A program made the translations under genes and the position numbers. Positions 48 to 50,072 of a DNA stretch of 64,000 nt are shown piece after piece. The stretch is taken from the IMG/VR virus record IMGVR_UViG_3300037484_000374, positions 96,001 through 160,000 of that record. One strand, written 5' to 3'. The notes beneath the pieces were generated by a model that had not been told where the DNA came from, did no database searches, and saw only the letters and a program-made list of their open reading frames with translations. Source of the stretch: a virus. How positions within the stretch are numbered: the stretch's first letter is position 1; every line of letters starts with the position of its first letter.

Positions 48-833
48 ATGTCAAGTAAAAACTTTAATTTTGTTCCAACCAATTGCCCCAAATGTGATAA
101 ATATTTAAAATGGAAGGGTGTAGATGTCATTTGTGATAATCAAGATTGTACGGCGCAAGGAATACTCAGAACAGAGCATTTCCTTCGAACTCTTGGAGCA
201 GAAGAGATCACATCTGTAACACTTGAGAATGTTGGTATCATGAGCATCCATGAAGCATACAAAATCGATGAAACTGATATCATGAGCCTTGAGGGTTTCG
301 GTGTCAGGAGCGCACAGGTTATTGTTGAGCAAATTCAAGGAACCCTAAAAACAACACCCGATAAGCTGTTGGCCGCTTTTGGTATAAAAGGATGTGGACT
401 TGAAACAGCAAGAACAATACTAAAACATCATGACATTGAAGATTTAATGAACGGTCTGGTGAGTGTAGACCAGTTGGTGTCTATAAATGGAATAGGTGAT
501 ATAACGGCGCAAAACATCGCTGACGGTGTTTCTGAGTACAAAGATACATACGACTACCTAAAATCAACTGGACTCCAATACAAGGTATCTGACAACGTTC
601 TGAGGGGTAAGATTTTTACACTCACTGGAAATGGCCCGATCAAGAGAGATATTTTAAAAAATATGATTGAGAGTAAAGGTGGTTACGTGAAAGGGATTTC
701 AAAAAACAAAACTGATTTTTTAGTATGTGATAATATCAATTCTCAATCAGGTAAATCAAAGAAAGCACGTCAATACGGTGTTCCTATAATCACATACGAA
801 GAACTGATTGACATAATAGAAGGATTAATGTAA
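48..833 (+). CDS. ligA: NAD-dependent DNA ligase, C-terminal part only (Zn finger, HhH, BRCT)
   Basis: PTNCPKC...CDNQDC Zn finger, HhH repeats (LEGFGVRSA, INGIGDITA), BRCT (GKIFTLTG...ISKNKTDFLV...KARQYGVPIIT); no adenylation domain, in-frame stops upstream. Confidence 0.88.
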   Translation: MSSKNFNFVPTNCPKCDKYLKWKGVDVICDNQDCTAQGILRTEHFLRTLGAEEITSVTLENVGIMSIHEAYKIDETDIMSLEGFGVRSAQVIVEQIQGTLKTTPDKLLAAFGIKGCGLETARTILKHHDIEDLMNGLVSVDQLVSINGIGDITAQNIADGVSEYKDTYDYLKSTGLQYKVSDNVLRGKIFTLTGNGPIKRDILKNMIESKGGYVKGISKNKTDFLVCDNINSQSGKSKKARQYGVPIITYEELIDIIEGLM

Positions 834-1108
834 TGGCAGAAGATAAAGGAATGGTAATGATCTTGCTTGAAATGAGCAATCTTGAGGTTTTTTTCACAAA
901 ACCATGTGAAGAAGATGATGGGGGCTTGATATATGGTATAACCTTTGATGATGAAAAAGTCAAGGAACTCGGTTATACAAATGATCAGGTCATCGAGAAG
1001 ATCAACGAGATGGTTGCAGGTCTTGAAGATGGGTCATGGGATATAGAAACAGCAGAAGATAATACCTATATTATAAACCTTCTTGGTGGATTAGAAGAAG
1101 ATAAATAA
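833..1108 (+). CDS. hypothetical acidic protein
   Basis: 91-aa ORF coupled to ligA stop (TAATG). Confidence 0.6.
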   Translation: MAEDKGMVMILLEMSNLEVFFTKPCEEDDGGLIYGITFDDEKVKELGYTNDQVIEKINEMVAGLEDGSWDIETAEDNTYIINLLGGLEEDK

Positions 1109-1294
1109 AGGTATAACATTTAGTTATTGGAAAAAGAGGATTGTTTTGGATGGACACTTCAAAGCAGAGCATGGAAAACCAGCGGAATCCTACATGAAAT
1201 ATATTCTGCGTTTCCATTTCTTTTATACAAAAGAAAAGCATTTATAGTGTGTCAACTATTTGATTACACACTTGAACTCTAAAGAGGAATAAAT

Positions 1295-1376
1295 GGGGCG
1301 AAGGCTTTCTACCAACACAATAGTATTGAAACGTTGCAATCGTGTTGCTTGAGTTCGAATCTCAAGACCCCCCCCC
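1295..1376 (+). ncRNA. tRNA-like element (T-arm plus long helix), degenerate tRNA or tmRNA tRNA-like-domain remnant
   Basis: CTTGAG-TTCGAAT-CTCAAG T-arm, GGGG/CCCC ends, CAACAC/GTGTTG helix; no canonical anticodon arm or CCA. Confidence 0.4.
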
Positions 1377-1406
1377 TTCATATTAATTTAAGTATAGGAA
1401 ATTATC

Positions 1407-1607
1407 ATGGATGAAGAAAAATTTGTATGTTGTCGATGTCGGAAAAGTGGAAATGAGAATCTTTCCCTTATTCTTGTCAGAAATGAGTTTTCTGAGATCA
1501 TTGCAAACATTTTTGTATGTGATGTATGTGGTGAGCATCTTTCCAGAAAGACATGTGAGTTGAGGTTCGGAACCGCTGACATGGAAACAATAGGAGTATT
1601 ACAATAA
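1407..1607 (+). CDS. small CxxC zinc-binding protein
   Basis: CCRC and CDVC motifs, AGGA RBS. Confidence 0.55.
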   Translation: MDEEKFVCCRCRKSGNENLSLILVRNEFSEIIANIFVCDVCGEHLSRKTCELRFGTADMETIGVLQ

Positions 1608-1762
1608 TGGATGATGTAAGGTGTATAAAATTTTTCTGTAAAAAATGTGGTAAAGAAATCTTTCAGGATATCAAATATTCTTGGGAGTCATTGGCAGGTA
1701 TAGCATCAAAATGTGTCTGTGCCGATTGTACTGTGAAGTCTATAAAAAATGTATAAGTTTTA

Positions 1763-1770
1763 TATAAATA
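1763..1770 (+). promoter_or_regulatory. T4-type late promoter TATAAATA
   Basis: exact TATAAATA upstream of AGGAG RBS and ATG 1805; motif recurs at 10823, 14632, 15143, 18653, 19877, 32558 (+) and 24, 48513, 56689, 56907 (-). Confidence 0.75.
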
Positions 1771-1804
1771 CTCTTATAGAGAATAATAATAGGAGTAGTT
1801 TAAT

Positions 1805-3433
1805 ATGAGACTGAAAAGACATTTAATACTTGAGAATGTTTCCAAGCAAGAGATTGATGATGCTCTTAAAAATAAAAATATCATTATAGGCTGCGAGTTC
1901 GAGTTTATTCATAACGATCTTCCAGAAGAAGGTGTTAGTGATTTTGTATCTACTGTATATGAACCAGCATATAATGCATGGCAACAATACCAAAAAGAGG
2001 TATATACATATAAAAAACAAGAAGAATTGTTCTGGAAAGAGATCAACAAGGAAGAGAAGAGATTAGAAGCAGAAGTCCTTGTAATTGATAATATAATAGA
2101 GAGACAGAATGAATTAGATAAAAACAGTGATGAGTGGAATAAGCTGGAAGTTGGGGTTAAAAAACTCAAAAAAAAATATGATAAAAAAGTTAAGGAACTC
2201 GAAGAAAGACGTGACAACTCATATGAAGAGTTAGACGGGTATTGGCCAGAAATAGATACTGATTACATGCAATATTGGGAAAAGACAACAGGTGATATTC
2301 CAGATGGAATATCAACAAACTCCCAAAAAGGCAAATGGTTTGCCACAGACGCACCGGATGATTTTTCAATACCTGAACCAGATATTGTGGGTTGGGGGAG
2401 TGTGCCAGGTGATGATGAATGGCAAAGTCAAGTCGAGGAACTTAATTGGTCAAGCGCACCTTTCAAAGATTATGAAATTGGTGATTATGGTCAGATTGTT
2501 CAGAAATTAGGTGATACTAAATGGGCTATTGAAGCAGATAAAACTCTTGGATATCAAGGCATTGAAGTAAAATCTCCACCAACAAATTTACCAAAAGCCA
2601 TTGATGATATTGAAAAGATGTTTAAATATATCAACAAACAAGGCTATACAGATAATAGAACGGGGTTTCATGTTCATATGAGTGTCAAGGGTATAAATAA
2701 CCTTGAAGATAAACTCGACCCGGTTAAACTTTTGATGTTCATGGATGAGGGTTTTATATGGAAACATTTCGCTGACAGGGTGAGTAATATCTTTGCCATG
2801 TCAATGAAGGACAAGTTTAAGAACGAGGGTGATATTAGACCAAATGATTTCAGTAAACTGGTAGACAAAAAGAAATTAAAAACTAAAATGACCGCCGAAC
2901 ATTTCGATGCTATCAACCTCAGTAAATGGCAACAGGGTCATATAGAATTCAGATATATGGGTGGTCGAGACTACCATAAAAAGTTTAATGAAGTGAAAGC
3001 CATTATTGGTCAGTACTCTCACAATATTTCACTGGCATTAGACCCTGAGTTTAAAAAGAAAGAATACCTTCTTAAAATTCAGCGTATCGCTAATAAGATG
3101 GAACTTTATAAAATGGAAAAAATGCTTGAATGGTATCGGCATGTTAGCCAATATACAAAGGATTTAGATAAATCATTTAAAAACCTCAAGCTGGTGTTAA
3201 AGAAGAGGATGAGAGAGATCGAGAATTATATAACCTCTTTAAAGAAAACATATAAGATCAATGACCGTGAACATATGTTATTGGGAAATAATAAGGGGTT
3301 TACCTACGGTATCGAAGATGATATCAAGAAAGATATAAGTAAAATTATAGATAAATGGGAAGATATTTTACCAGTAAGCTATATGAACGACATAATGCCG
3401 TTTATAGGAATGAGAATCTTGAAGAACAGATAA
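1805..3433 (+). CDS. putative amidoligase (COOH-NH2 ligase family)
   Basis: IGCEFEF, GIEVKSP, TGFHVHMS, HIEFRYMGG motifs. Confidence 0.8.
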   Translation: MRLKRHLILENVSKQEIDDALKNKNIIIGCEFEFIHNDLPEEGVSDFVSTVYEPAYNAWQQYQKEVYTYKKQEELFWKEINKEEKRLEAEVLVIDNIIERQNELDKNSDEWNKLEVGVKKLKKKYDKKVKELEERRDNSYEELDGYWPEIDTDYMQYWEKTTGDIPDGISTNSQKGKWFATDAPDDFSIPEPDIVGWGSVPGDDEWQSQVEELNWSSAPFKDYEIGDYGQIVQKLGDTKWAIEADKTLGYQGIEVKSPPTNLPKAIDDIEKMFKYINKQGYTDNRTGFHVHMSVKGINNLEDKLDPVKLLMFMDEGFIWKHFADRVSNIFAMSMKDKFKNEGDIRPNDFSKLVDKKKLKTKMTAEHFDAINLSKWQQGHIEFRYMGGRDYHKKFNEVKAIIGQYSHNISLALDPEFKKKEYLLKIQRIANKMELYKMEKMLEWYRHVSQYTKDLDKSFKNLKLVLKKRMREIENYITSLKKTYKINDREHMLLGNNKGFTYGIEDDIKKDISKIIDKWEDILPVSYMNDIMPFIGMRILKNR

Positions 3434-3449
3434 AAAAGGGGAAAAATGT

Positions 3450-3687
3450 AATGCCGTTATGCCAAACCTGCCAAAAACTGTACGCACCAGAACTTTTACA
3501 TGTCAAAGAAAACAATAGTATAGAGTGTTCATTCTGTAAAGCAGGAAAGGACACATTGACAATCACCGATAAAAATGGTAAAGTATTAAAAAGGATTACA
3601 AAACAAGAAACCAGTGGAGCATATGCCCAGTTTCTAAAAGAAATGGCACTTAGACCAAATGTACAAAAGTTAATTAATCGAGAATAA
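3450..3687 (+). CDS. hypothetical CxxC protein
   Basis: MPLCQTC...CSFC; start reassigned to the ATG after a GGGG RBS. Confidence 0.55.
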
Positions 3688-4235: not shown

Positions 4236-4538
4236 TTGGTAAAGAAAACATCGCGAGAATGTGATAGGTGTGGGTGTAAAAGCAATATCAGACAATGCGT
4301 TGGGTGTGGCGATGATGTGTGTAGATCATGCAGGAGTTTCATAGATATCGATCCATGGACAGGGGTTAACAATGACGACTATCCAGAACCCATATGTAAA
4401 AAATGTGATGTAAAACTCATACCGTATGCTCACATGGCCGAGAGAATTTTAGATGATGCATTTGAAGAAACAGAAAGACTAAAACTTGAATGGCGAGAGA
4501 GTTGTAAGAAAGAATATGTCCAAGAAACACACATATGA
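4236..4538 (+). CDS. cysteine-rich zinc-finger protein
   Basis: four CxxC motifs. Confidence 0.55.
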   Translation: MVKKTSRECDRCGCKSNIRQCVGCGDDVCRSCRSFIDIDPWTGVNNDDYPEPICKKCDVKLIPYAHMAERILDDAFEETERLKLEWRESCKKEYVQETHI

Positions 4539-5421
4539 ATTTGTAAAAGAACATATCGAGTCTTTTGGATATAAACTTTTGAGTGATACTTATAAAAACG
4601 CACATGGTAAATTAGAATTCCAATGCTCGAAGGGACATGAATTTAGTATGAAATTTACCAGTTTTAAAAACAATGCCCAAAGATGTCCAGAGTGTTTTGG
4701 AACACCTAAACACACATATGAATTTGTAAAAGAACATATCGAGTCTTTTGGGTATAAACTTTTGAGTAAAGAATATGTTAGTATCAAATATAAACTAAAG
4801 CTGGAGTGTCCAGAAGGACATGTTATAGAAATGAGGTTTGGTAACTTTAAAAATGTAAATTCAAGATGTAACATATGTGCTGGCCATGAGAAACATACAT
4901 ATGAATATATCAAAGAACGATTTGAAGAAGAGGGATATACTCTCTTATCAAAGAAATATAAGAACAATAAAACACCTTTAAAAACAATTTGTCCAGAAGG
5001 ACATAATCATAGTATACCATATGGTAGGTTTAGGGGCGGTGATAGGTGTATGGTTTGTAGTATAGAATCATCGTCATCAAAAACAGAGCAAGAAATATAT
5101 GGTTTTGTAAAACAAATATATGATGGTGATGTAATTTCAAATGATAGGACTCAGATTGTCAATCCAGAAACAGGATGTGGTCTTGAGTTGGATATTTGGC
5201 TTCCAGAATTAAATAAGGCAATAGAATTCAACGGTGTTTATTGGCACTCATTTTGTGATGTGAAACGAAAAGACAAAATTAAAAAACAACAATGTAAAGA
5301 AAAAGAAATAAGTCTCATGTTGATCCATGAACAGGATTGGATTAACAACAAAGAAAACTGTTTAAACAAAATAAAGGAATTTGTGGATGTCGAATCAACT
5401 AAAGAAGTTAAAGAAATCTAA
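4516..5421 (+). CDS. putative homing endonuclease (Zn-ribbon repeats + Vsr/PD-(D/E)XK-like domain)
   Basis: three CxxGH...RCxxC repeats, C-terminal LELDIWLPELNKAIEFNGVYWH. Confidence 0.75.
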   Translation: MSKKHTYEFVKEHIESFGYKLLSDTYKNAHGKLEFQCSKGHEFSMKFTSFKNNAQRCPECFGTPKHTYEFVKEHIESFGYKLLSKEYVSIKYKLKLECPEGHVIEMRFGNFKNVNSRCNICAGHEKHTYEYIKERFEEEGYTLLSKKYKNNKTPLKTICPEGHNHSIPYGRFRGGDRCMVCSIESSSSKTEQEIYGFVKQIYDGDVISNDRTQIVNPETGCGLELDIWLPELNKAIEFNGVYWHSFCDVKRKDKIKKQQCKEKEISLMLIHEQDWINNKENCLNKIKEFVDVESTKEVKEI

Positions 5422-11829: not shown

Positions 11830-11903
11830 GCTAAGAGTGGTTCTGGGAACCGATTTCTCTTGTAAGGAAGTTTTTGGGGGTTCGACTCCTCCTCTTAGCT
11901 CCA
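11830..11903 (+). tRNA. tRNA-Thr(TGT), short D-loop
   Basis: GCTAAGA/TCTTAGC, loop CTTGTAA, D-arm GGTTC-TGG-GAACC, TCCA. Confidence 0.82.
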
Positions 11904-11972
11904 AGTTTACACACAACAAGTATTGTGGTATAATGATAGTAAATATAATAGGAGATGTAATGACAAGATTTT
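11903..11972 (+). repeat. 70-bp promoter-RBS-start module, identical inverted copy at 47968-48037
   Basis: TTTACA-N17-TATAAT, AGGAG, ATGACAAGATTTT; exact reverse complement at 47968-48037. Confidence 0.9.
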
Positions 11973-15452: not shown

Positions 15453-15842
15453 ATGAAGAAATTGTTTTTAGTATTGATAATATGTTTGAGTTTGTTGTTA
15501 CCGGTAGTTGCATCAGCAAACATGGAGTGTTTGGGTGAACCGCTCACGGATGGCGAAACCAATATAGTTAATATGGTTCACGAACTTCTTACAGCATACG
15601 GTGCTTATATAATACCACTTGCAAACGCAGTTAAACCGGAAGAGGTTTTGGCAATGACTCGACCCGATCTTCAAAGATTGGCAACCCAATTAACAGAAGA
15701 GGGTCTTTTACAAGTGGTTTCAGGTCAGATTGGTTATTACGAAGAGGGTGATGTTTGGATGTTCGTGATTGTCGAACCAACACTGGATAAGGAAGCGGCA
15801 TGTATTATCAGTGTAATGTTAAGAGAGAAGACAGCAAAATGA
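15453..15842 (+). CDS. exported hypothetical protein
   Basis: signal peptide MKKLFLVLIICLSLLLPVVASA. Confidence 0.65.
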   Translation: MKKLFLVLIICLSLLLPVVASANMECLGEPLTDGETNIVNMVHELLTAYGAYIIPLANAVKPEEVLAMTRPDLQRLATQLTEEGLLQVVSGQIGYYEEGDVWMFVIVEPTLDKEAACIISVMLREKTAK

Positions 15843-16234
15843 AAATTTTATTCAGAATATTGATTGTATTAATGTTTTTGTCAGTACCAATGAGCGCACA
15901 GGCAAAAAAAGAATGTACCAGTTGTGGAACGCTGGGTGTTACCGAGCAGATTACGGTAAATGATATTAACAAACAAGTCACTGAGTATTGTAGTGAAAAT
16001 ATGGGCAAGATGAAAACGTGGCCAGTACATAGGGCCATCAAAAAAGCCGAGAAGGGGATCAATTTGATCGTCACACGGTTTATCGACAAGGGGTACGTTG
16101 ATGGTATCACTGTCGAGTTTAAAGTCGTTAGCGATGAGCTATGGCCCGATAGTAAAAAAGTTTATGTAGAATTAACCATTGTTCCAAATAATAAGAAACC
16201 GTCAAGGTGTGTTATCACGGGAAGGTTACAATGA
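15839..16234 (+). CDS. exported hypothetical protein
   Basis: signal peptide MKILFRILIVLMFLSVPMSAQA; ATGA overlap. Confidence 0.65.
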   Translation: MKILFRILIVLMFLSVPMSAQAKKECTSCGTLGVTEQITVNDINKQVTEYCSENMGKMKTWPVHRAIKKAEKGINLIVTRFIDKGYVDGITVEFKVVSDELWPDSKKVYVELTIVPNNKKPSRCVITGRLQ

Positions 16235-16605
16235 TGAGAATTGTATATATACTCTTAGCACTGATGGTTTTTATGTCACCATCGTTTGAAAAACTTAGCG
16301 CATATTCTGGGATGAGTCAACAAACCAAGAACCAAGGAAGCAATACGAATGTTGTGGAGGTAAAAAAAGAAATTCGAGCATGGTGTGAATATTATTCAGA
16401 AAAAATACCATCAAGGTTAACGTTAATATTATTACAAAGTTCACTGGATGGTTATTGTAACTTTGCAGTTCGTGAGAGGATGGTATATTGGGTTGATAGT
16501 GTGGCATTTATTAAGAATAATGAGATTTGGGTAAAGACCATTATCATCCCTGTAAAGGGTGGAGAAAAAATAGAGTTTACGTTAAGACTCGTAACGAAGT
16601 GTTAA
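16231..16605 (+). CDS. exported hypothetical protein
   Basis: hydrophobic N-terminus; third of three similar-sized exported ORFs. Confidence 0.6.
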   Translation: MMRIVYILLALMVFMSPSFEKLSAYSGMSQQTKNQGSNTNVVEVKKEIRAWCEYYSEKIPSRLTLILLQSSLDGYCNFAVRERMVYWVDSVAFIKNNEIWVKTIIIPVKGGEKIEFTLRLVTKC

Positions 16606-41353: not shown

Positions 41354-41484
41354 TCTGGTTTACATCTCATTAAAAATACGTTATAATATATTTAATGAGA
41401 TGTATCATTAAACAAGCCCTAAATGGTTTGGTGTGATCAATTGCAAAATAATGACCAACCTCTTCCAATTGAGAAATTGAGAAT

Positions 41485-42504
41485 ATGCGTCTATTAATTA
41501 CAGGTGGTACGGGTTATATAGGGTCACATACATGTGTTGTGTTGATGCAAGCTGGTCACGAAGTGGTGATCTTAGACAACCTTTGCAACAGTCGGCGCGA
41601 TGTGGTTAATCGTATTGGCCGGATTGTCGGTTGGGAGCCTGCGTTCGTTGAGGGTGACGTGCGTGATCGCTCTTTGGTTCGCCGATTGCTTAATGACGAA
41701 GGTATTGATGGTGTGATGCACTTCGCTGGCTTGAAGGCGGTGGGAGAGTCGGTGGCCCAACCTCTTGCCTATTACGATTGCAATGTTTGCAGCACCATTG
41801 CATTGTTCGAGTCAATGGTGGAGGCGGGGGTGAAGGTACTGGTTTTCAGCTCGTCCGCAACAGTTTACGGATATCCAAAGACAGTGCCAATTAGTGAGGA
41901 TTTTCCATGTTCAGCAACTAATCCTTACGGACGTAGTAAACTTATAATTGAGGATATCTTATCCGACCTTCTCAGGGCAGACCCGGCATGGTGTATTGCA
42001 TGTTTGCGCTATTTCAACCCAGTTGGGGCGCATGAGAGTGGTATGATAGGCGAGGCGCCACTTGGTGTACCTAATAACCTCGTGCCTTATATAACTGACG
42101 TGGCGGCAGGGCGGCGGGAACGGCTCGAGGTTTTCGGTGACGATTATTCTACCCGGGATGGTACAGGAGTGCGTGATTACATTCATGTTATGGATATGGC
42201 CGAAGGACACGTAGCCGCACTTAACGCGCTTGTAGCCAAAAGCGGAATGTTTACTGTCAACCTAGGTACAGGGTGCGGCTACACAGTGTTGGAAATGGTT
42301 CGTGCGTTTGCTGCTGCGAGTGGGAAAGAAGTTCCCTATGTTTTATCCCCTCGTCGTCCTGGTGATGTGGCTGAGTGTTATGCAGATGCGACACTCGCAT
42401 CGACATTGTTGAATTGGCAGGCAAAGCGGGATATCCATGCCATGTGCCGTGACACTTGGAGATGGGAACAATGGCGTTTACATTCCATTAAAAATATGTT
42501 ATAA
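41485..42504 (+). CDS. galE: UDP-glucose 4-epimerase
   Basis: TGGTGYIGSH, HFAGLKAVGES, YGRSK, LRYFNPVGAH, GVRDYIHV; GC clearly above flanks. Confidence 0.95.
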   Translation: MRLLITGGTGYIGSHTCVVLMQAGHEVVILDNLCNSRRDVVNRIGRIVGWEPAFVEGDVRDRSLVRRLLNDEGIDGVMHFAGLKAVGESVAQPLAYYDCNVCSTIALFESMVEAGVKVLVFSSSATVYGYPKTVPISEDFPCSATNPYGRSKLIIEDILSDLLRADPAWCIACLRYFNPVGAHESGMIGEAPLGVPNNLVPYITDVAAGRRERLEVFGDDYSTRDGTGVRDYIHVMDMAEGHVAALNALVAKSGMFTVNLGTGCGYTVLEMVRAFAAASGKEVPYVLSPRRPGDVAECYADATLASTLLNWQAKRDIHAMCRDTWRWEQWRLHSIKNML

Positions 42505-43296
42505 TATATTATAAGATAAATTAAAAGGAGTAATTATAAATTTCAAAGATGATCTTCATGATCTAAAGAAACTGTTTAAAAATAAAGGGGAAGAAATGGC
42601 GCACGAGATGGGAGTCGAAGAATTTTTTCGGGGGGTAAAAGACCTCCGAGAAATGAGAAAAAACGACCCGGAAGGCTATCAAAAGTGGTGTAACGACAGG
42701 GGACTGACAGAAGATTCAGAGCCATTGGTGTTTACTGCGGACCCGGATGAATAGCGGTTTGGTGTTATGGAACCATAATTTATATCAAGTGGTGATCAAG
42801 TAGCAATAATTGACTATAATATAAGTTATACTTACCTGAGAGCAAAGAGCATTTAGTATAATAATAACAGTTATATACAAAAATGTGTTAATTTGTAAAA
42901 AAGTAGTCTAAAATTGTCCATATAATGTAATAATCTGTTAAAAATTGAATAGGAATATAATATGAAGATAGGTGATAAGGGTTGTTGGTCTCTGGAACAC
43001 AAACTATTGAGGTGCAGCGATGACGAGTAATTCAGGAGATTATGGATATGAATCAAGATGAAGCGGATATGAATCAAGATGAAATTGAAAGACAAGCAGA
43101 TGAATTTTTTGCAACAAAGCTAATGAAAACTGTTAAGGTTAGCAATAATGATTGTTTCGGTTGCCGGGCGAAACGTAAAAAACGTAAAAAACGTGGATTG
43201 CCTTGTTAAGGTTAGAAGTAAGCGGCAGGCCACAGGGCGACCACTTATTAATTTTTTTTGCCGGATGCGTTATCCCATGCGGTTGAGGAATTGGTT

Positions 43297-43515
43297 ATGT
43301 CGATAAAAGTAAATAAAATTCGTGTAGTTATATATCCCGCCGACTTTCCGAAAAATATAAAAATGACCCCTGAAAATTGGAGCGACTGGCTAACCGGCAA
43401 GTTGGTTGACCACGGGATACCAGCAGATACCCCACAAACTGTTAATAGTGGGGTTATAAGTCGATTTGATGACCCCGGAAATGAGGGGCAGATTATTTAC
43501 GAGTGGAAAGCATAA
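43297..43515 (+). CDS. cassette ORF, hypothetical
   Basis: GAGG RBS; stop in GCATAAC of attC. Confidence 0.65.
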   Translation: MSIKVNKIRVVIYPADFPKNIKMTPENWSDWLTGKLVDHGIPADTPQTVNSGVISRFDDPGNEGQIIYEWKA

Positions 43516-43603
43516 CGCTTCGGTTAACCAGTGGCGAGCCACCGAAGCAATTTATTAAACTCAACAGCAGACCCCGCCATCTGCGTTGAACCGATTGTTA
43601 TAT
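43510..43603 (+). mobile_element. attC-like site 1
   Basis: GCATAAC...TCGGTT-AAC / GTT-G-AACCGA...GTTATAT with extrahelical base. Confidence 0.8.
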
Positions 43604-43618
43604 TTCAGGAGGCGCAGG

Positions 43619-43834
43619 ATGGAAAAGATAGTTGGTGATTGGCATATTGAAGTAACGATGTCAGCGGATGAAGCAAAAGAGGTCTGCAAGATGGGTAGTG
43701 GTGCTGGCGGTTTTGAGTGCATCAGGATGTCATACCCAGCGAACGGGAGCATTTTCTCTCGTTTGAAGGACGGGACTATGAAGGCAAAGGGCGAAGGTGG
43801 ATGGGCCGGTTGTGCTTGGCACGGGGAAATATAA
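43619..43834 (+). CDS. cassette ORF, hypothetical
   Basis: AGGAGG RBS right after attC; stop in ATATAAC. Confidence 0.65.
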   Translation: MEKIVGDWHIEVTMSADEAKEVCKMGSGAGGFECIRMSYPANGSIFSRLKDGTMKAKGEGGWAGCAWHGEI

Positions 43835-43945
43835 CGACAAGTTGAGACGCGTCACGCGGAACTTAGCAAAGATAAATTAAACAATGGAGGACAATCCGCC
43901 AAGAAAGTGCCAGTGTGGGCGTCGGGCTTGAGCGGATTGTTATGC
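43829..43945 (+). mobile_element. attC-like site 2
   Basis: ATATAAC...GTTATGC, inner arms partly diverged. Confidence 0.7.
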
Positions 43946-43954
43946 GAGGTTTTT

Positions 43955-44224
43955 ATGATTGATTTTAAAAAAGTAAAACCACCTAGCCTACTTGATATGT
44001 TCGGTAAATCTGTTGATGAATGGACGGTTAATGAAAAGCTACATATTGCGACAGAGTATAAAAAACTGCAATGCAACAATATAGAGTGCCACTGTGGAAG
44101 AGATGTGCTGAAAAGCATTTGGGAAGCAATACACCAGACTCCAGCATGTGGATTAAATGCGATACTTTGTGCGGCAGCGCAAGAAATTGACGCTTTGCGA
44201 AACATGGTTAATGCCGACACATAA
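43955..44224 (+). CDS. cassette ORF, hypothetical
   Basis: GAGG RBS after attC; stop in ACATAAC (truncated attC at 44219). Confidence 0.65.
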   Translation: MIDFKKVKPPSLLDMFGKSVDEWTVNEKLHIATEYKKLQCNNIECHCGRDVLKSIWEAIHQTPACGLNAILCAAAQEIDALRNMVNADT

Positions 44225-44355
44225 CGCTCCGGCTACAAAACCAGGGCAACAAAAAATAATTAATATCATTTTTTCTATTGACTCTCTCTGATATTATGGT
44301 ATTATTAAATCAAAGGGAAGGCAATAAAGCACTCTCGCAAAACAGGGAGCAAGAC

Positions 44356-44547
44356 ATGAAAACTTACAAAGAAATGTACGAAGAAGCCGCTGCTAAAACA
44401 AACGGAGAATACAAGGGGTATACAAAAGGCAACGCCCTTTCTCTGTACGTTGACGAAAAATACGGGGTGAATGCGGCGGCGAACAATGCCGCTCATGACG
44501 CTCTTTGTGAAGTTGCATCAACAATGAGTTTGGACGATGAAGAGTAA
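44356..44547 (+). CDS. small acidic protein with own sigma70 promoter
   Basis: TTGACT-N16-TATTAT at 44278, GGAG RBS. Confidence 0.6.
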   Translation: MKTYKEMYEEAAAKTNGEYKGYTKGNALSLYVDEKYGVNAAANNAAHDALCEVASTMSLDDEE

Positions 44548-44804
44548 AAAGGCGGCAATAGACCGGCCCTTGCACCTGAAGAAAAGCCGGTTGATATCTC
44601 CCTGCGCCCCCGCGCGATCTGGTTGAGAAACTGGACGCTATGGAAGGCAGTCGGGCGAAACTGATAATTGCAGCCTGTCCGGCCTCGATAATAAAAAATA
44701 AATAAAATAGAAATAAATTGCGATTATCGCTTGACGCAATAGAAATATAATGCTATACTGTATTTAACAAAGGGCGATAAAGCCAAAGTTAAAAGGAGAT
44801 AGCA

Positions 44805-45059
44805 ATGAAACTTAAATCAGACGACAAAAAAACTAATCAGTACCTTTTTCATTCCGAAGAGATTTCCGTTGTTGAGTCTACCGACGCTTACAAACTGGTG
44901 GAATTTAAACGCGGCTTGGATTTCGGGCTTGCTCTTGTAATTGACGGAAAAGTAAAAGAGCTTCAGTGTCGTGGCAGATACGAATGGGACAAGATGAAAA
45001 AAGCAAACCCGGACACTTGGATTTCTGATATGAAAGAATATTTCATCTTCTTCATGTAA
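44805..45059 (+). CDS. hypothetical protein with own sigma70 promoter
   Basis: TTGACG-N17-TATACT at 44731, AGGAG RBS. Confidence 0.65.
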   Translation: MKLKSDDKKTNQYLFHSEEISVVESTDAYKLVEFKRGLDFGLALVIDGKVKELQCRGRYEWDKMKKANPDTWISDMKEYFIFFM

Positions 45060-45075
45060 TCAAAGGAGGCACAAA

Positions 45076-45318
45076 ATGAAATTTGAAAAATATGTTTTCG
45101 GGACGATGTTAAACGGATGGAGTATCACAAAATACACGGACGGCGAAATGATTCGGATTGTTGCAGAACATTCCGAGCACGACGATGCCGGTGAAAGGAA
45201 TTTTGAAAGCGAAAATGATTATGAAATATGGATTGACAGCATAGTTGATGATGAGACAGCGATCTATAGCCCGGCCGAAGCGGTTAACCGTGTGTTGAAG
45301 GCACTAAGAAATGACTGA
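45076..45318 (+). CDS. hypothetical acidic protein
   Basis: AGGAGG RBS. Confidence 0.65.
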   Translation: MKFEKYVFGTMLNGWSITKYTDGEMIRIVAEHSEHDDAGERNFESENDYEIWIDSIVDDETAIYSPAEAVNRVLKALRND

Positions 45319-45479
45319 TTACGTCAAACAACTTCGAGAAAAAGGCTGGACGGCTCAAGAACTGGCGAAGCGGTGGGGGGGTTACTCCCCGCCGCATTTC
45401 GCAAATCGGCAATGGCCCGAGTCAAAAAGATTGGGACGCTTTGGCCGGGCTGCCGCCCAAAGTTGCCCCGGCAGACTAA
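45311..45479 (+). pseudogene. small HTH regulator, frameshifted in a G7 tract
   Basis: removing one G gives GWTAQELAKRWGVTPRRISQI...VAPAD with stop in GACTAAC of the attC. Confidence 0.65.
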
Positions 45480-45539
45480 CGACCAGCATAAGCGGTTGCC
45501 GGGCAGTTTCGGCAATCCGACTTAATGCGCTGGTTATGC
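45474..45539 (+). mobile_element. attC-like site 4 (66 bp)
   Basis: GACTAAC-GACCAGCATAAG-CGGTTGCCG...CGGCAATCCG-A-CTTA-ATGC-GCTG-GTTATGC. Confidence 0.85.
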
Positions 45540-45707
45540 GATTTTAAATTTATGGGGGTGGCGGTACCTAATCTTGGTTGCTCTTGATTACTGCGAAAAG
45601 ACGCAGGCCCCCCCGCCTTTTTACATTATGGCCGAAAGCATATGAGAACACATCCGCCGTGGACCGGGGCCATGTGTGAGTAGGCCATTTGGGGAAGAGG
45701 AGAGAAA

Positions 45708-45899
45708 ATGAAATTAAGGCTATCAAAAGAAAAAGACATGATGTGCGGGTGGTGTTTTGAACCGGATGATGTCCTGGCGATCCGCGACGAATATGAGAAG
45801 AGAAACGGAAACGAGGTTGCCAGCGATCTTGAATTTATGGATGATATTTTGGCAATCCTCTGGGAACACAAACTATTGAGGTGCAGCGATGACGAGTAA
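45708..45899 (+). CDS. cassette ORF, hypothetical
   Basis: GAGGAG RBS. Confidence 0.55.
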   Translation: MKLRLSKEKDMMCGWCFEPDDVLAIRDEYEKRNGNEVASDLEFMDDILAILWEHKLLRCSDDE

Positions 45900-46083
45900 A
45901 GAAATGATGCAGACAAAGCTAAAAAAAGGGGGAATTTTTGAAAACCAGAGCAAGCTTGGCAGTAAGCCAAACTGGAAGATCATTCCTGCGAATATCGACA
46001 AGTATCCGTCTTTTGCTGCTTTCTGCGATGAATGTGGCTGCCCGTTCCATGACGGAAAACCGGGATGCTATTGTTCAGCATAA
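45889..46083 (+). CDS. cassette ORF, Cys-rich C-terminus
   Basis: GAGG RBS; stop in GCATAAC. Confidence 0.55.
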   Translation: MTSKEMMQTKLKKGGIFENQSKLGSKPNWKIIPANIDKYPSFAAFCDECGCPFHDGKPGCYCSA

Positions 46084-46170
46084 CGCCCCGCATAACCAGC
46101 GTGGCCTAAAGGTTAATTCCCGATAGGGCCGCAGGCGTTTACCACGTCTGCGTTTATGCGATTGTTGGGC
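46078..46170 (+). mobile_element. attC-like site 5
   Basis: GCATAAC...CGCATAAC-CAG-CGTGG / CCACG-T-CTG-CGTT-TATGCG...GTTGGGC. Confidence 0.85.
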
Positions 46171-46184
46171 CGCTCTTGACCTTA

Positions 46185-46445
46185 TTATTTTTTAAAATCA
46201 ATTGGTAAATAAATGGTGAATCCATGAGAAACACGTTTATTGGAATATTTATATTCACAGTAACCCCTTGGCTTTCTTTCTCCTCTACATGACTGTTCAT
46301 TTTCTATCATGTGTTCAGAGCATAAAAAGCCACACGTTTCGTCTTGTTCTACAAATATTTCTTTAATGTCTTGATAACAGTCATAAAGATAAACTTTATA
46401 ATCAGCGCTATTGGTACAATTTTTTACACAACATTTTTGTTTCAT
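46185..46445 (-). CDS. Cys-rich hypothetical protein, antisense within cassette
   Basis: MKQKCCVKNC...LCSEH, GAGG RBS. Confidence 0.55.
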   Translation of the reverse strand: MKQKCCVKNCTNSADYKVYLYDCYQDIKEIFVEQDETCGFLCSEHMIENEQSCRGERKPRGYCEYKYSNKRVSHGFTIYLPIDFKK

Positions 46446-46473
46446 GTTTAACCTCAAATTTATGGTGAATAAA

Positions 46474-46743
46474 ATGAAAGAAATTGAAATTAAAATTACA
46501 GGCGAAAACAAGACTGGTAAAAGTAAAATTGCATGTTTGATAAGTAATGTCTTAAAAAATAGTGGAGCAACAATAACTTGTGAAGATGATTTCTTTAATT
46601 ATGTAGGTAAAAACATTAATTTAGAAGAATGTAATATTGTTGTTAAAGTTCAATCTGTTAAATATCGGGCTCCCAACGGTATGACTATAATGTATGGCGA
46701 TCCAAAAGAAGGCAAAAGTTGTCATGAGAACCATGTTTTATAA
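46474..46743 (+). CDS. hypothetical protein with P-loop-like motif
   Basis: ITGENKTGKS. Confidence 0.5.
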   Translation: MKEIEIKITGENKTGKSKIACLISNVLKNSGATITCEDDFFNYVGKNINLEECNIVVKVQSVKYRAPNGMTIMYGDPKEGKSCHENHVL

Positions 46744-46783
46744 AACCTTTTGTTTATAACCTGGGCGGAAGTCGCAAGCCTCC

Positions 46784-46873
46784 GCCCAACGACCAAGGTA
46801 ACGCGACCGGGCCACGATGCCTGGTTGCGAAGCCGCCGACGTTACCCCGGTCGCGTTGACCGTTTTGTTAAGT
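46784..46873 (+). mobile_element. attC-like site 6
   Basis: GCCCAAC...GGT-AACGCGACCGGG / CCCGGTCGCGTT-G-ACC...GTTAAGT. Confidence 0.85.
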
Positions 46874-46990
46874 TTTGAGCCACCGAAATTATTTTAAAAA
46901 ACTTTGTTTTAGGTGTTGACTTATACACGCAATGCGTATATATTAAGACCAAGAGTTAAGCATAACTAACCAAAACAAAGGAGACAAACC

Positions 46991-47254
46991 ATGAGAAACT
47001 TAATCACGAGAGAAGAAGCTGTAAAAATGGTAGGCGAAGAACTGGTAAACACCGCAGAGCAGACAAATTGTGATAACGCCTGTTTTGTTACCGATGGGAC
47101 TGCATGGGCCGGGTACGACGCATACACCGCAACGGCTGATAATGACGACTATCGGGTAACTGTTTATTATTTGCAGGATGCGGAAGAAACAAAAGATATC
47201 CCCCTTGACGATATGTCGTGGGAGATCGAAGGCTACGAGGTTGAGGAAGTTTAA
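46991..47254 (+). CDS. acidic hypothetical protein with own promoter
   Basis: TTGACT-N17-TATATT at 46916, AGGAG RBS. Confidence 0.65.
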   Translation: MRNLITREEAVKMVGEELVNTAEQTNCDNACFVTDGTAWAGYDAYTATADNDDYRVTVYYLQDAEETKDIPLDDMSWEIEGYEVEEV

Positions 47255-47457
47255 TGACAGGCCAAGAACTTAGAGAGGCCCGGCTTCGGCTGGGCCTCAA
47301 CATGCGCCAAATGGCGGAAGCACTCGAAACACCATACCGGACATACCAGGATTGGGAACTCGGAAACCGGCGCATTCTCGGCGTGTGCAATGTGGTTGTT
47401 TTTTTGCTGTTGAAATACAAGGGCGCAGTTAACGCATTACTGGCTCGAGAAACTTAA
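47254..47457 (+). CDS. XRE-family HTH regulator
   Basis: MTGQELREARLRLGLNMRQMAEALETPYRTYQDWELGNRRI; stop in ACTTAAC. Confidence 0.85.
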   Translation: MTGQELREARLRLGLNMRQMAEALETPYRTYQDWELGNRRILGVCNVVVFLLLKYKGAVNALLARET

Positions 47458-47508
47458 CCAATGATTGGCAGGCATTTTTGCCCCGCTATTTAATATTATA
47501 GGGGTATT

Positions 47509-47694
47509 ATGATTAATGTAAAAGAATATGATCAGGTTGAGATATGGGATGATTTTGGTGGTGCGGACACGATTGCCGCATGCTACCTTGAAAACTCTTT
47601 GAACCAAGGGAAAACTGTTTCAATCCCAAGTTTGGGGATCACCATAAAAGAACCTAGCGGAAACGCAATTACATGTAAAAACACCAGAAAATAA
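47509..47694 (+). CDS. hypothetical protein
   Basis: followed by attC left end GCCCAACCAGGCGCTGCAC at 47699. Confidence 0.5.
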   Translation: MINVKEYDQVEIWDDFGGADTIAACYLENSLNQGKTVSIPSLGITIKEPSGNAITCKNTRK

Positions 47695-47967
47695 TGCAGC
47701 CCAACCAGGCGCTGCACATTGGAGGTAAAAATATGGTTAAGATCACAGTAAAGTGCGTGGAATGGGGGTCAATATGCGAGACTGGCACCCAGCACTTTTG
47801 CCCCACTAAATAATTATTTTAGCGGTGCCAGATAAACCAACATCCAAATCATTACTGGACATAGCAGATATTGCGTCGTGGTGGATTTGATCATACCATT
47901 TTTCACAATCTTTATGGTCTTCTTTAAGACTTGCTTTACCCTGCCTCTACTTGTTTACTTCCCTGTG

Positions 47968-48037
47968 AAAATCTTGTCATTACATCTCCTATTATATTTA
48001 CTATCATTATACCACAATACTTGTTGTGTGTAAACTT
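47968..48037 (-). repeat. second copy of the 70-bp promoter-RBS-start module
   Basis: exact reverse complement of 11903-11972. Confidence 0.9.
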
Positions 48038-49159: not shown

Positions 49160-50072
49160 TTATCTCACACAACCGATACAAAAGATCACCCTGACTTCAA
49201 CCCTATGTTTCAAAATCCCTACCCCCCCCTTGTGGATAGGGATTGTAGCTGAAAACTTCTCGCTACTATTGGCTTCTTGAAATAGCCTGTTCCTCTTAGA
49301 GAGGACATAGTTATAACGGATGTTCTTGGCGGCATTTAAGTCGATGTGATCGATATGACCGCAAGAAGAACAAATGTAGTTGCTTTTCTTACGGCTGTTC
49401 TTCTCAGTAACTCCACACACATTACACTTTTGACTCGTGTATCCGGGGTCAACATAGACAACTTCAATACCGTTAAATTCACATTTATATTCAAGAAATG
49501 ATTGAAATTGAAAATAAGACCAGTTAGAAAGCCAAGAATTTAGTTTATGATCTTTTCTCTGGTTTCTGAGTCCTTTCAAATTTTCGAGAACATAAGTGCT
49601 AACATCGTGACTTGATAGCTGCTTTGTAACAACATGATTGAAATCTCGCATGAACCGCATTTCTCGACCAGACAGCTTCTTTAGTTTCCGTTTCGCTGAT
49701 CGAGTGCCTTTTTGCTGTAATTTCTTTCTATTATACTGGTACTTTCTTTTAACAGCTACCGTTTTTTTAGATGATATGATTTTACCATCCGATAATGCAC
49801 AGAGATTATACAAACCTCTATCAATTCCTATTATTTTCAGTTTTTACTTTTTCTTTGACTTTATAAACAAGGCATAACCAAAATTGACCGTTTTTGAATG
49901 TTAATTGCCCTGCCTGAACATCGTTTGTATTTACACTGTACTTTGTTACAAACCATTCAGGAATATCATGGAGGGCTCGTACTCTTTTATTATTACTGCT
50001 TATAGTGGTAAGTTGCCCTCTACGGGACAGAGATAGTTTATTCAAGTGGAGTGTAACCGAGAGGGACAGCAT
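49160..50072 (-). pseudogene. tnpB: IS200/IS605-family TnpB, N-terminally truncated and frameshifted
   Basis: IGIDRGL, VLENLKG, YTSQKCNVCG...CSSCG...DLNAAKNI; split over two frames; hairpin at 49213-49244. Confidence 0.85.

Follow-up and report, generated by a model that had tools for sequence, protein, structure and literature searches.

Introduction

Integrons are the gene-capture devices of bacteria, and recent work has shown that their cassettes store anti-phage defence systems. Here we analyse a block of attC sites and small open reading frames (ORFs) at about 43.28-47.8 kb of a 64,000-nucleotide stretch of viral DNA, hereafter the window, which corresponds to bases 96001-160000 of a 170,951-bp virus record in IMG/VR (IMGVR_UViG_3300037484_000374, labelled G000). 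We consider it probable that this block is a partly eroded cluster of attC sites lacking integron integrases (CALIN) in a hyperplastic region of a virulent T4-like phage, and that its cassettes may be moved by the integron integrase (IntI) of a host.

Phage-borne CALINs were reported in 2023 by Qi et al., who found them in temperate as well as virulent phages and accompanied them with IntI1 assays (PMC9892861). Their 21 phages span 4-132 kb, and five of six phage attC sites were IntI1 substrates in their assays, among them all four sites tested from Tetrasphaera phage TJE1 and Pseudoalteromonas phage H101, two per phage (PMC9892861). The headline of the original prediction for the window, drawn from the letters alone, was an integron-type attC array inside a phage; the array itself proved real, but as a discovery it had been anticipated by that paper. 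The present locus resembles the published examples in having at least two attC sites interspersed with small, co-oriented ORFs in a phage without IntI, and in H101, too, the coding strand is the attC bottom strand. It differs in that none of the 21 phages looks T4-like or N4-like, as judged by size and description, and in that the cargo highlighted there was methyltransferases, whereas the window holds a predicted AcrF1-fold protein in an operon with a helix-turn-helix (HTH) gene, as well as cassettes that bear promoters. Sharing of cassettes between unrelated phages was not reported in that study, and its phage TJE1 has the canonical polarity of genes and sites. The text of the paper, in which we sought orientation terms, does not mention gene-versus-attC polarity, and a search of the literature returned neither a published link between attC sites and phage anti-defence genes nor a note on polarity. 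What is new here is the reversed polarity, the sharing of sites and cassettes between unrelated phages without integrases, and a cargo predicted to include an AcrF1-fold protein and an HTH protein of the anti-CRISPR-associated (Aca) kind.

The integron arrays of bacteria, both those of class 1 and those in metagenome-assembled genomes (MAGs) of Desulfobacterota, Nitrospira and Pseudomonadota, share with the window the architecture of attC and the offset complementarity between neighbouring sites, and a model built from phage sites scores bacterial sites at 25-62 bits. In those arrays, the ORFs lie on the attC top strand and a platform of IntI, attI and Pc is present somewhere in the genome, whereas the window has its ORFs on the bottom strand, no such platform, several truncated sites and some cassettes with a promoter of their own.

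A third related system is found in T4-type phages, whose hyperplastic regions shuffle ORFs through repeated promoter and stem-loop motifs, the promoter early stem-loop elements (PeSLs; PMC2839356, PMC4122927). The window is similar in that small novel ORFs lie between repeated hairpin motifs in a T4-like hyperplastic region, and promoter-flanked modules (a GalE-like gene, ORF E and ORFs F to H) are located within the same block. PeSLs, however, recombine homologously at promoter-terminator repeats and have no RYYYAAC/GTTRRRY ends, no one-sided extrahelical bases and no offset complementarity, whereas the sites of the window match attC models. The attC sites themselves are without promoters, and one of them (s5) resembles a terminator. 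Even on a conservative reading, the locus extends the set of phage CALINs to T4-like and N4-like phages and documents a polarity rule that the 2023 paper does not mention, and flanking attC sites could serve as a marker for new phage counter-defence genes.

Identification of attC sites in a T4-like phage

The record has an estimated CheckV completeness of 71%. It contains a Pfam match to the Gp23 major capsid protein (E 6e-100) and also encodes an NrdD-like reductase, many tRNAs and homing-endonuclease-like genes, and because of this gene content the T4-like label given to it in the original prediction is correct. A scan for pairing arms, which was noisy in AT-rich DNA (261 candidates), was replaced by two covariance models. 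The first (R1) was derived from seven phage sites, three in the window and four in other viral contigs, and the second (R2) is a broader model derived from 47 matches comprising phage, bacterial-MAG and class 1 attC sites; three window sites were in the R2 training set, and the sites at 45474 and 43829 were in the set of neither model. With filters off, R2 found exactly five sites on the two strands of the 64-kb window, the next best match having an E-value of 0.22, and it found the same five and no others in the whole 171-kb record; E-values are rough, as the model calibration was shortened. These are the five full hairpins that had been predicted at 43510, 43829, 45474, 46078 and 46784, all of them on the plus strand:

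43510..43603, + strand: attC s1, GCATAAC-N6-GGTT.AAC-CAG-TGGCG ... CGCCA[T]CTG[C]GTT[G]AACC-N5-GTTATAT; R2 E 7e-22
43829..43945, + strand: attC s2, atypical, 117 nt, weakest score, ATATAAC ... GTTATGC; R2 E 4e-4
45474..45539, + strand: attC s3, short type, 66 nt, GACTAAC-N6-CAT.AAG-CGG-TTGCCG ... CGGCAA[T]CCG[A]CTT[A]ATG-N5-GTTATGC; R2 E 7e-9
46078..46170, + strand: attC s4, GCATAAC-N6-CAT.AAC-CAG-CGTGG ... CCACG[T]CTG[C]GTT[T]ATG-N5-GTTGGGC; R2 E 7e-17
46784..46873, + strand: attC s5, GCCCAAC-N6-GGT.AAC-GCGACCGGG ... CCCCGGTCGC-GTT[G]ACC-N5-GTTAAGT; R2 E 2e-14

Alignment of the arms of s1, s3, s4 and s5 revealed a common plan, consisting of a 7-mer, a 6-nt spacer, nnT.AAn, a stem, a variable loop, the returning stem, nTT[x]Ann, a 5-nt spacer and a second 7-mer, in which one to three extrahelical bases are confined to the 3' arm of the plus strand. 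The bottom strands of aadA1 and aadA7 show the same arm asymmetry. The ends of all five full sites have the form nnnnAAC ... GTTnnnn, and the AAC/GTT pairs are invariant or nearly so among 46 distinct aligned sites. In the alignment of 47 sites, compensatory changes were present in 13 of the 17 pairs, and paired cells amounted to 90%, compared to 73% in shuffles and 30-36% in controls in which the partner was slid.

The models also recovered sites of known function. R1, which contains phage sites only, matched six class 1 integron attC sites in the P1 isolate MH445380, including those of aadA1 and cmlA (E 4e-8 to 8e-3), in each case on the strand that does not encode aadA and cmlA, and R2 recovered three sites of TJE1 and four of H101 (E 2e-8 to 2e-6). 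Because of this reciprocal recovery of class 1, TJE1 and H101 sites, and because the same type of site is found in MAGs that encode IntI, the sites of the window are, as judged from sequence, bona fide attC sites. A scan of the window against Rfam matched tRNAs alone, with no family at the array. With five sites within 3.4 kb, the block fits the IntegronFinder definition of a CALIN, namely at least two close attC sites and no intI nearby. It is not a complete integron, which would combine intI, attI and Pc, as neither IntI nor another tyrosine recombinase was found in the record.

The original prediction noted no intI in the window, and neither PF00589 (tyrosine recombinase) nor TIGR02249 (integron integrase) had a match across the 171-kb record, an absence that, at 71% completeness, covers the record and not the entire genome. 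It could be argued that the phage uses a recombinase of its own that is either unrecognised or encoded in the approximately 29% of the genome outside the record, and the incomplete record, as well as a TnpB-like fragment to the right of the array (49160-49813), could be cited in support. We regard this as quite improbable, since an N4-like phage that is 100% complete and has nine model matches also lacks PF00589, and what it has in common with the present phage is cassette sequence, with no enzyme among the matches. Furthermore, TnpB is an RNA-guided nuclease and not an attC recombinase, and the copy here is a fragment.

Offset complementarity and truncated sites

In addition to the complete sites, the array contains four half-sites:

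43282..43300, + strand: right half-site s0, GTT[G]AGG-N5-GTTATGT, an attC 3' arm; its 7-mer matches the next GCATAAC at 3/4 variable positions
44219..44250, + strand: half-site t1, ACATAAC-GCTCCG-GCT..., a copy, with an internal deletion, of the attC at 15769-15833 of the N4-like phage G004
47452..47470, + strand: half-site t2, ACTTAAC, a perfect complement of the GTTAAGT of s5; the remainder of the site is gone
47699..47715, + strand: half-site t3, GCCCAAC-CAGGCG..., with a ribosome-binding site (RBS) and a short ORF (47694/47734-47813) directly after it; the array ends here on the right

The truncated left ends at 44219, 47452 and 47699 had been predicted and are real, that at 44219 being a deletion derivative of an intact attC that accompanies the same cassette elsewhere; the right half-site at 43282-43300 adds a fourth. 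Together with the five complete sites, these four half-sites divide the array into at least eight small cassettes. As had been noted, most ORF stops fall inside the 7-mers of the sites, with the TAA of the 7-mer ending six of eight ORFs.

The original prediction held that the 7-mers of neighbouring sites are complementary to each other across the intervening gene, and a count over the four variable R-box positions of each 7-mer confirmed it: 22 of 24 variable positions match at the six adjacent junctions, whereas the two 7-mers of the same site agree at 9 of 20 and non-adjacent pairs at 2.0 of 4 on average (binomial p 1.8e-5). The same offset complementarity holds in two of the other viral contigs described below (G004 and G002). 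Complementarity of neighbouring 7-mers across genes is the footprint of an IntI-type exchange at AA|C, which on the complementary strand is G|TT. A mobile hairpin resembling a miniature inverted-repeat transposable element was rejected as the identity of these repeats, since the 7-mers pair across genes and not inside a single site.

The half-sites, the internal deletion in t1 and the loss of attC before the promoter of the putative anti-CRISPR gene (acr; see below) nevertheless represent recombination that was not site-specific, and, as far as sequence can show, the phage's own recombination erodes the array as well. These features favour a different account, in which the attC sites are present by descent and now act merely as patches of homology or as hairpins, with shuffling due to homologous or illegitimate recombination of the phage in the manner of PeSLs and no integrase at work today. 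It is an account with a precedent in the PeSL shuffling of T4-type phages (PMC2839356, PMC4122927), and promoter-flanked modules are found in the same block, such as the GalE-like gene between promoters at 41359 and 42477. Homologous recombination, however, can inherit but never create the offset complementarity of the 7-mers. In addition, the arm asymmetry and the extrahelical bases have been kept through many compensatory changes, which argues for continued selection on recognition by IntI rather than for a hairpin alone, and two attC sites of H101, a phage with the same polarity as the window, are efficient substrates of IntI1. We therefore consider it unlikely that the array persists by homology alone, although this is the alternative that we take most seriously.

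Reversed polarity of genes and sites

On the coding (top) strand of class 1 cassettes, attC has the form RYYYAAC-N5-GTT[C]AAG ... CTTAAC-N6-GTTRRRY, whereas the aadA7 bottom strand that Qi et al. show in their supplement is RYYYAAC-N6 ... CTT[G]AAT-N5-GTTRRRY (PMC9892861). The plus strand of the window, which bears nearly all of the ORFs, shows the bottom-strand form. Offset complementarity fits either partition of the array into cassettes, and therefore the arm asymmetry alone decides between them; because the coding strand is the attC bottom strand, the mobile unit in the window consists of an attC and the gene or genes downstream of it, whereas in bacterial arrays the gene comes first and is followed by its attC. 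For the same reason, the labels R'' and R' in the original prediction are swapped relative to the canonical strands: its R'' is the R' of the bottom strand, and the exchange falls at RYYYAA|C.

We scored polarity from the ORFs that end or start at sites, from counts of stops in the 7-mers and from deposited annotations. At phage sites, the ORFs were on the same strand as the model match in 26 cases, on the opposite strand in 8 and unclear in 15, whereas at sites of bacterial MAG arrays the corresponding numbers were 0, 16 and 3 (Fisher p 1.5e-7), counts that rest on crude ORF calling and, for the phages, on sites from a limited number of contigs that are not phylogenetically independent. Consistent with this contrast, 17 phage ORFs of at least 50 amino acids stop in the 5' 7-mer on the model strand versus two on the other strand. 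The deposited annotation of H101 places every gene on the same strand as the four attC bottom strands, and in that of a phage contig with a GpA-type terminase (L069), genes and attC bottom strands are also co-stranded. TJE1 was called as canonical, and therefore the model is able to call either strand.

The four attC sites of H101 (L087, KR534323), an isolated virulent phage of 132 kb, lie at 990-3058, all with the bottom strand as the coding strand, and two of them are known to recombine with IntI1 (PMC9892861). Some loci are less uniform. The 21.6-kb 'viral' contig L081 (IMGVR_UViG_3300037882_001652, GC 0.54) has nine attC sites within 3.5 kb (210-3574) with mixed or unclear polarity; it may be a misclassified contig, or a prophage carrying a bacterial array. 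In an array of a Desulfobacterota MAG (L042), one ORF of 91 amino acids (4494-4769, +), flanked by two sites, is encoded on the attC bottom strand, a polarity like that of the phages.

Related sites and cassettes in other phages and in bacteria

Copies of the attC sites on other contigs were obtained by pattern scans of IMG/VR, in which the left-arm pattern matched mostly chance coding sequence (L011-L018). Copies of the s1 type, with 87-94% identity, were present in four other viral contigs (G002, G003, G004 and L065), of which G002 and G003 carry further attC sites, and an s4-type copy with 93% identity was present in a T4-like phage (G001). Overall, attC subtypes are shared at 80-95% identity, and with the same polarity, with this second T4-like phage, an N4-like phage, the GpA-type terminase contig and H101. 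G001 has a genome of 204 kb that is syntenic with the record at 45-55% amino-acid identity and carries its attC sites at other loci; its three sites occupy two loci (118592-119005, minus strand, and 82595-82689, plus strand), neither at the position of the window array. The N4-like phage, G004, is a 60-kb podovirus that is 100% complete and encodes a 3,965-amino-acid ORF, a portal, a capsid and a terminase; at its nine model matches, the strand of the sites flips with the direction of the genes. PF00589 is absent from G001 to G004, including the complete G004, as well as from G000.

Between otherwise unrelated phage contigs, DNA matches were confined to attC sites, with two exceptions. The first is the cassette of ORF E: window 44232-44685 matches G004 at 15840-16314 with 87.6% DNA identity, ORF E itself having 92% protein identity, and in G004 this segment is a cassette body between two intact attC sites. 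The second is a module consisting of a promoter (44704-44816) and the ORF G-H pair, which matches L069, a phage contig of GC 0.53 with a GpA-type terminase, where the module directly follows an attC. G004 and G000 have only cassette-related sequence in common, namely the ORF E cassette and matches to HTH genes. When the block was compared by megablast with 50,697 phage records, nothing matched, and with the flanking 273-amino-acid protein as query no close relative of the phage was located, and hence no sister genome in which cassette order could be compared. The identity of the shared sites is also relevant to the homology-patch account, as about 90 nt at 87-95% identity between phages suffices for homologous recombination, and an exchange within the body of an attC would uncouple it from both neighbouring genes, as is seen for the s1 type.

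For bacteria, a pattern based on the s1 and s4 types was run against 185,579 prokaryotic species, each represented by one genome. The same type of attC was found mostly in Desulfobacterota MAGs, some of the matches forming arrays (five sites in L042, three in L051), and IntI scored above the TIGR02249 cut-off in three of five bacterial MAGs with this type. The only locus aligning to the window block at the DNA level had 73% identity.

These data bear on the possibility that the phage acquired, in a single step of illegitimate recombination, part of a chromosomal integron or CALIN from a bacterium and carries it as an inert passenger. In its favour, GC is, as predicted, higher in the block than in the phage (0.41-0.47 in the stretch from 41 to 48 kb, against about 0.35), bacterial MAG arrays have a similar type of attC, and Qi et al. 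describe temperate phages with subsets of host arrays (PMC9892861). However, the genes of the window have a polarity opposite to that at all 16 scorable bacterial sites, and its cassettes contain phage-type promoters and an acr-aca-like operon. One cassette cargo is an exception to the high GC, with a value of 0.31 that is at or below that of the phage, and both the closest attC copies (87-95% identity) and the two shared cassettes reside in other phages, whereas the scan of species genomes yielded no locus closer than 73%. An origin of the block as bacterial cargo of this kind thus appears improbable.

An assembly artefact that fused phage and bacterial DNA would also account for the shifts in GC at 41 kb and 48 kb, and the record does come from a metagenome assembly. 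We find this very improbable, given that the block lies within the record, flanked left and right by phage sequence of one composition, and itself contains sigma-70-like promoters of the phage type and an AT-rich cassette. Similar layouts, moreover, are present in independent assemblies (G004 and L068, which are 99.6% identical, and L069, L070 and L071 from three samples), and H101, an isolated phage, has a comparable arrangement.

A possible role of host integrases

The original prediction proposed that the phage gains and shuffles genes by means of a host or remote integron integrase. Use of a host enzyme is plausible from the sequence evidence, because MAGs with the same type of attC encode true IntI, because two cassettes and several attC subtypes are common to unrelated phages, because two attC sites of H101, a phage with reversed polarity and a similar site architecture, were recombined by IntI1 in a published assay, and because the phages compared have no recombinase in common. 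In the mechanism that we envisage, infection or co-infection of an integron-bearing host would allow the host IntI to fold and recombine the attC bottom strands of the phages, moving units of an attC and its gene between them, and the homologous and illegitimate recombination of the phage itself would then remove parts of the sites. Present-day shuffling may be in part site-specific and in part homologous.

The reversed polarity would keep this phage-borne pool of cassettes apart from those of bacteria. A cassette would be transcribed only when the polarity of its attC equals that of the resident array, such that a cassette from one pool inserted into an array of the other would be antisense and hence silent. 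The uniform reversal is most simply read as a founder effect that has been kept by selection for expression. As a speculation, placing the bottom strand on the coding strand may also favour folding. As the non-template strand, and in genes co-oriented with replication the template of the lagging strand as well, the coding strand is the one most often single-stranded.

Several observations weigh against the movement of these cassettes by a host IntI. Five viral contigs (the window, G002, G003, G004 and L065) have s1-type sites with 87-94% identity, and in the four of these contigs that were examined both the upstream and the downstream genes differ, a pattern that simple movement of an attC with its gene does not by itself explain. 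Homologues of ORF E with 68% identity are present in three further viral contigs without attC nearby. Offset complementarity is inherited, and can neither date the recombination nor place it in a phage, and with four of nine sites truncated, decay fits the array as well as active use does. The reversed polarity is not universal in phages, since TJE1 is canonical, and the eight opposite and 15 unclear phage sites, the crude ORF calling and the mixed polarity of the dense L081 array further weaken the rule. The record contains no integrase, and if the DNA of this phage is modified, as it is in many T4-like phages, its use as a substrate by IntI might fail.

A broader possibility, which we put forward tentatively and regard as more doubtful than the role of host IntI at this locus, is that unrelated virulent phages (T4-like, N4-like and others) share a pool of cassettes of reverse polarity, borrow the IntI of their hosts, and in this way trade counter-defence genes such as anti-CRISPRs. 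If this is true, it would constitute a site-specific route of gene flow between unrelated virulent phages and a new layer of the arms race, in which a phage pool mirrors the integron 'biobanks' of defence genes in bacteria while the reversed polarity keeps the two pools mutually silent. Such a pool would, in addition, be a tractable setting for studying the origin of cassettes, that is, of the association of a gene with an attC.

Cassette cargo and neighbouring features

The cassettes and their ORFs are as follows:

43297..43515, + strand: ORF B, 72 amino acids, no family match; stop is the TAA in the GCATAAC of s1
43619..43834, + strand: ORF C, 71 amino acids, GGAGG RBS right after s1, stop in ATATAAC; cassette 43516-43834 comprises s1 and ORF C
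43955..44224, + strand: ORF D, 89 amino acids, stop in ACATAAC; cassette 43835-44224 comprises s2 and ORF D
44232..44685, + strand: cassette body with a sigma-70-like promoter (44278-44305) and ORF E (44356-44547, 63 amino acids)
44704..45479, + strand: promoter-bearing module with promoter 44731-44759, ORF F (44805-45059), ORF G (45076-45318) and ORF H (45311-45479)
45708..46083, + strand: ORF I (45708-45899, 63 amino acids) and overlapping ORF J (45889-46083, 64 amino acids, Cys-rich), with the ORF J stop in the GCATAAC of s4; cassette 45480-46083 with s3
46185..46743, no single strand: AT-rich cargo (GC 0.31) of cassette 46084-46789, comprising ORF K and ORF K2
46185-46445, minus strand: ORF K, 86 amino acids, Cys-rich
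46474-46743, plus strand: ORF K2, 89 amino acids
46916..47457, + strand: promoter 46916-46944, ORF L (46991-47254, 87 amino acids) and ORF M (47254-47457, HTH_3), with the ORF M stop in ACTTAAC; cassette 46790-47457 with s5
47509..47694, + strand: ORF N, 61 amino acids, no family match

Promoters are thus located inside three cassettes. The GC of the cassettes spans 0.31, in the cargo of the s4 cassette, to 0.50, a spread that fits cassettes drawn from phages of differing composition. Searches of Pfam and PHROGs returned nothing for most cassette ORFs, and look-ups of ORFs L and D in the ESM Atlas gave just 'viral hypothetical' leads below a useful score.

ORF G, which is 80 amino acids long, had a weak Pfam match to AcrF1 (PF20829) with 18.8 bits, under the gathering cut-off of 30.5 bits and in this respect different from the AcrF1 family proper, and the precomputed Pfam record of a homologue (P0002) lists the same family, marked as weak. 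A structure predicted with four homologues reached a predicted local distance difference test (pLDDT) score of 85.8, and its three best matches in the PDB were all AcrF1 (5UZ9, 6ANV and 6B46), with template modelling (TM) scores of 0.67-0.70 and a probability of 1.0, compared to a TM score of 0.42 for the next match. The model superimposes on AcrF1 with a root-mean-square deviation of 2.5 A over 74 columns at 20% identity. ORF G is, on the strength of this predicted fold, a candidate anti-CRISPR with an AcrF1-like structure.

The gene layout is also reminiscent of acr-aca operons, in which an anti-CRISPR gene and an HTH repressor gene follow a strong promoter, in that ORF G has a near-consensus promoter ahead of it and overlaps ORF H, a predicted Aca-like HTH gene. 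It differs from such operons in having an additional ORF (F) between the promoter and ORF G and in that the HTH gene is frameshifted. The frameshift in ORF H lies at a run of seven G residues (45375-45381), where the homologue in L069 has six and is intact, and could be either a sequencing error or a genuine pseudogene; in the restored frame, the stop lies in the GACTAAC 7-mer of s3. ORFs L and M form a second pair of a small protein and an HTH_3 protein behind a near-consensus promoter, with an acr-aca-like layout. The cargo would then be mostly counter-defence, comprising an AcrF1-fold protein with its Aca-like repressor and the second pair of a small protein and an HTH protein.

To the left of the array lies a GalE-like UDP-glucose 4-epimerase gene (41485-42504, GC of approximately 0.41), located between two copies of a phage promoter (TTTACA-17-TATAAT, at 41359 and 42477), which appears as a promoter-bounded moron adjoining the attC array and near other sugar-modifying genes at 35.4-41.3 kb. 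To the right, the 217-amino-acid ORF at 49160-49813 (minus strand) has a Cas12f1-like TNB domain (PF07282, E 6e-23) and a weak match to OrfB_IS605, and resembles a truncated TnpB, with no TnpA seen nearby. A role for this fragment in the array was rejected, as it is a truncated RNA-guided nuclease.

A blastn comparison of the block with the rest of the genome revealed a perfect 70-nt inverted repeat, with one copy at the right edge of the array region (47968-48037) and the other in the region of the tRNA cluster (11903-11972). Finally, a direct repeat of approximately 33-40 nt is shared by 42952-43030 and 45830-45900, and the C-terminal end of ORF I (...EHKLLRCSDDE*) recurs in truncated form, together with the overlapping start of ORF J, to the left of the array, which suggests that the s3 cassette has been partly duplicated or recombined.

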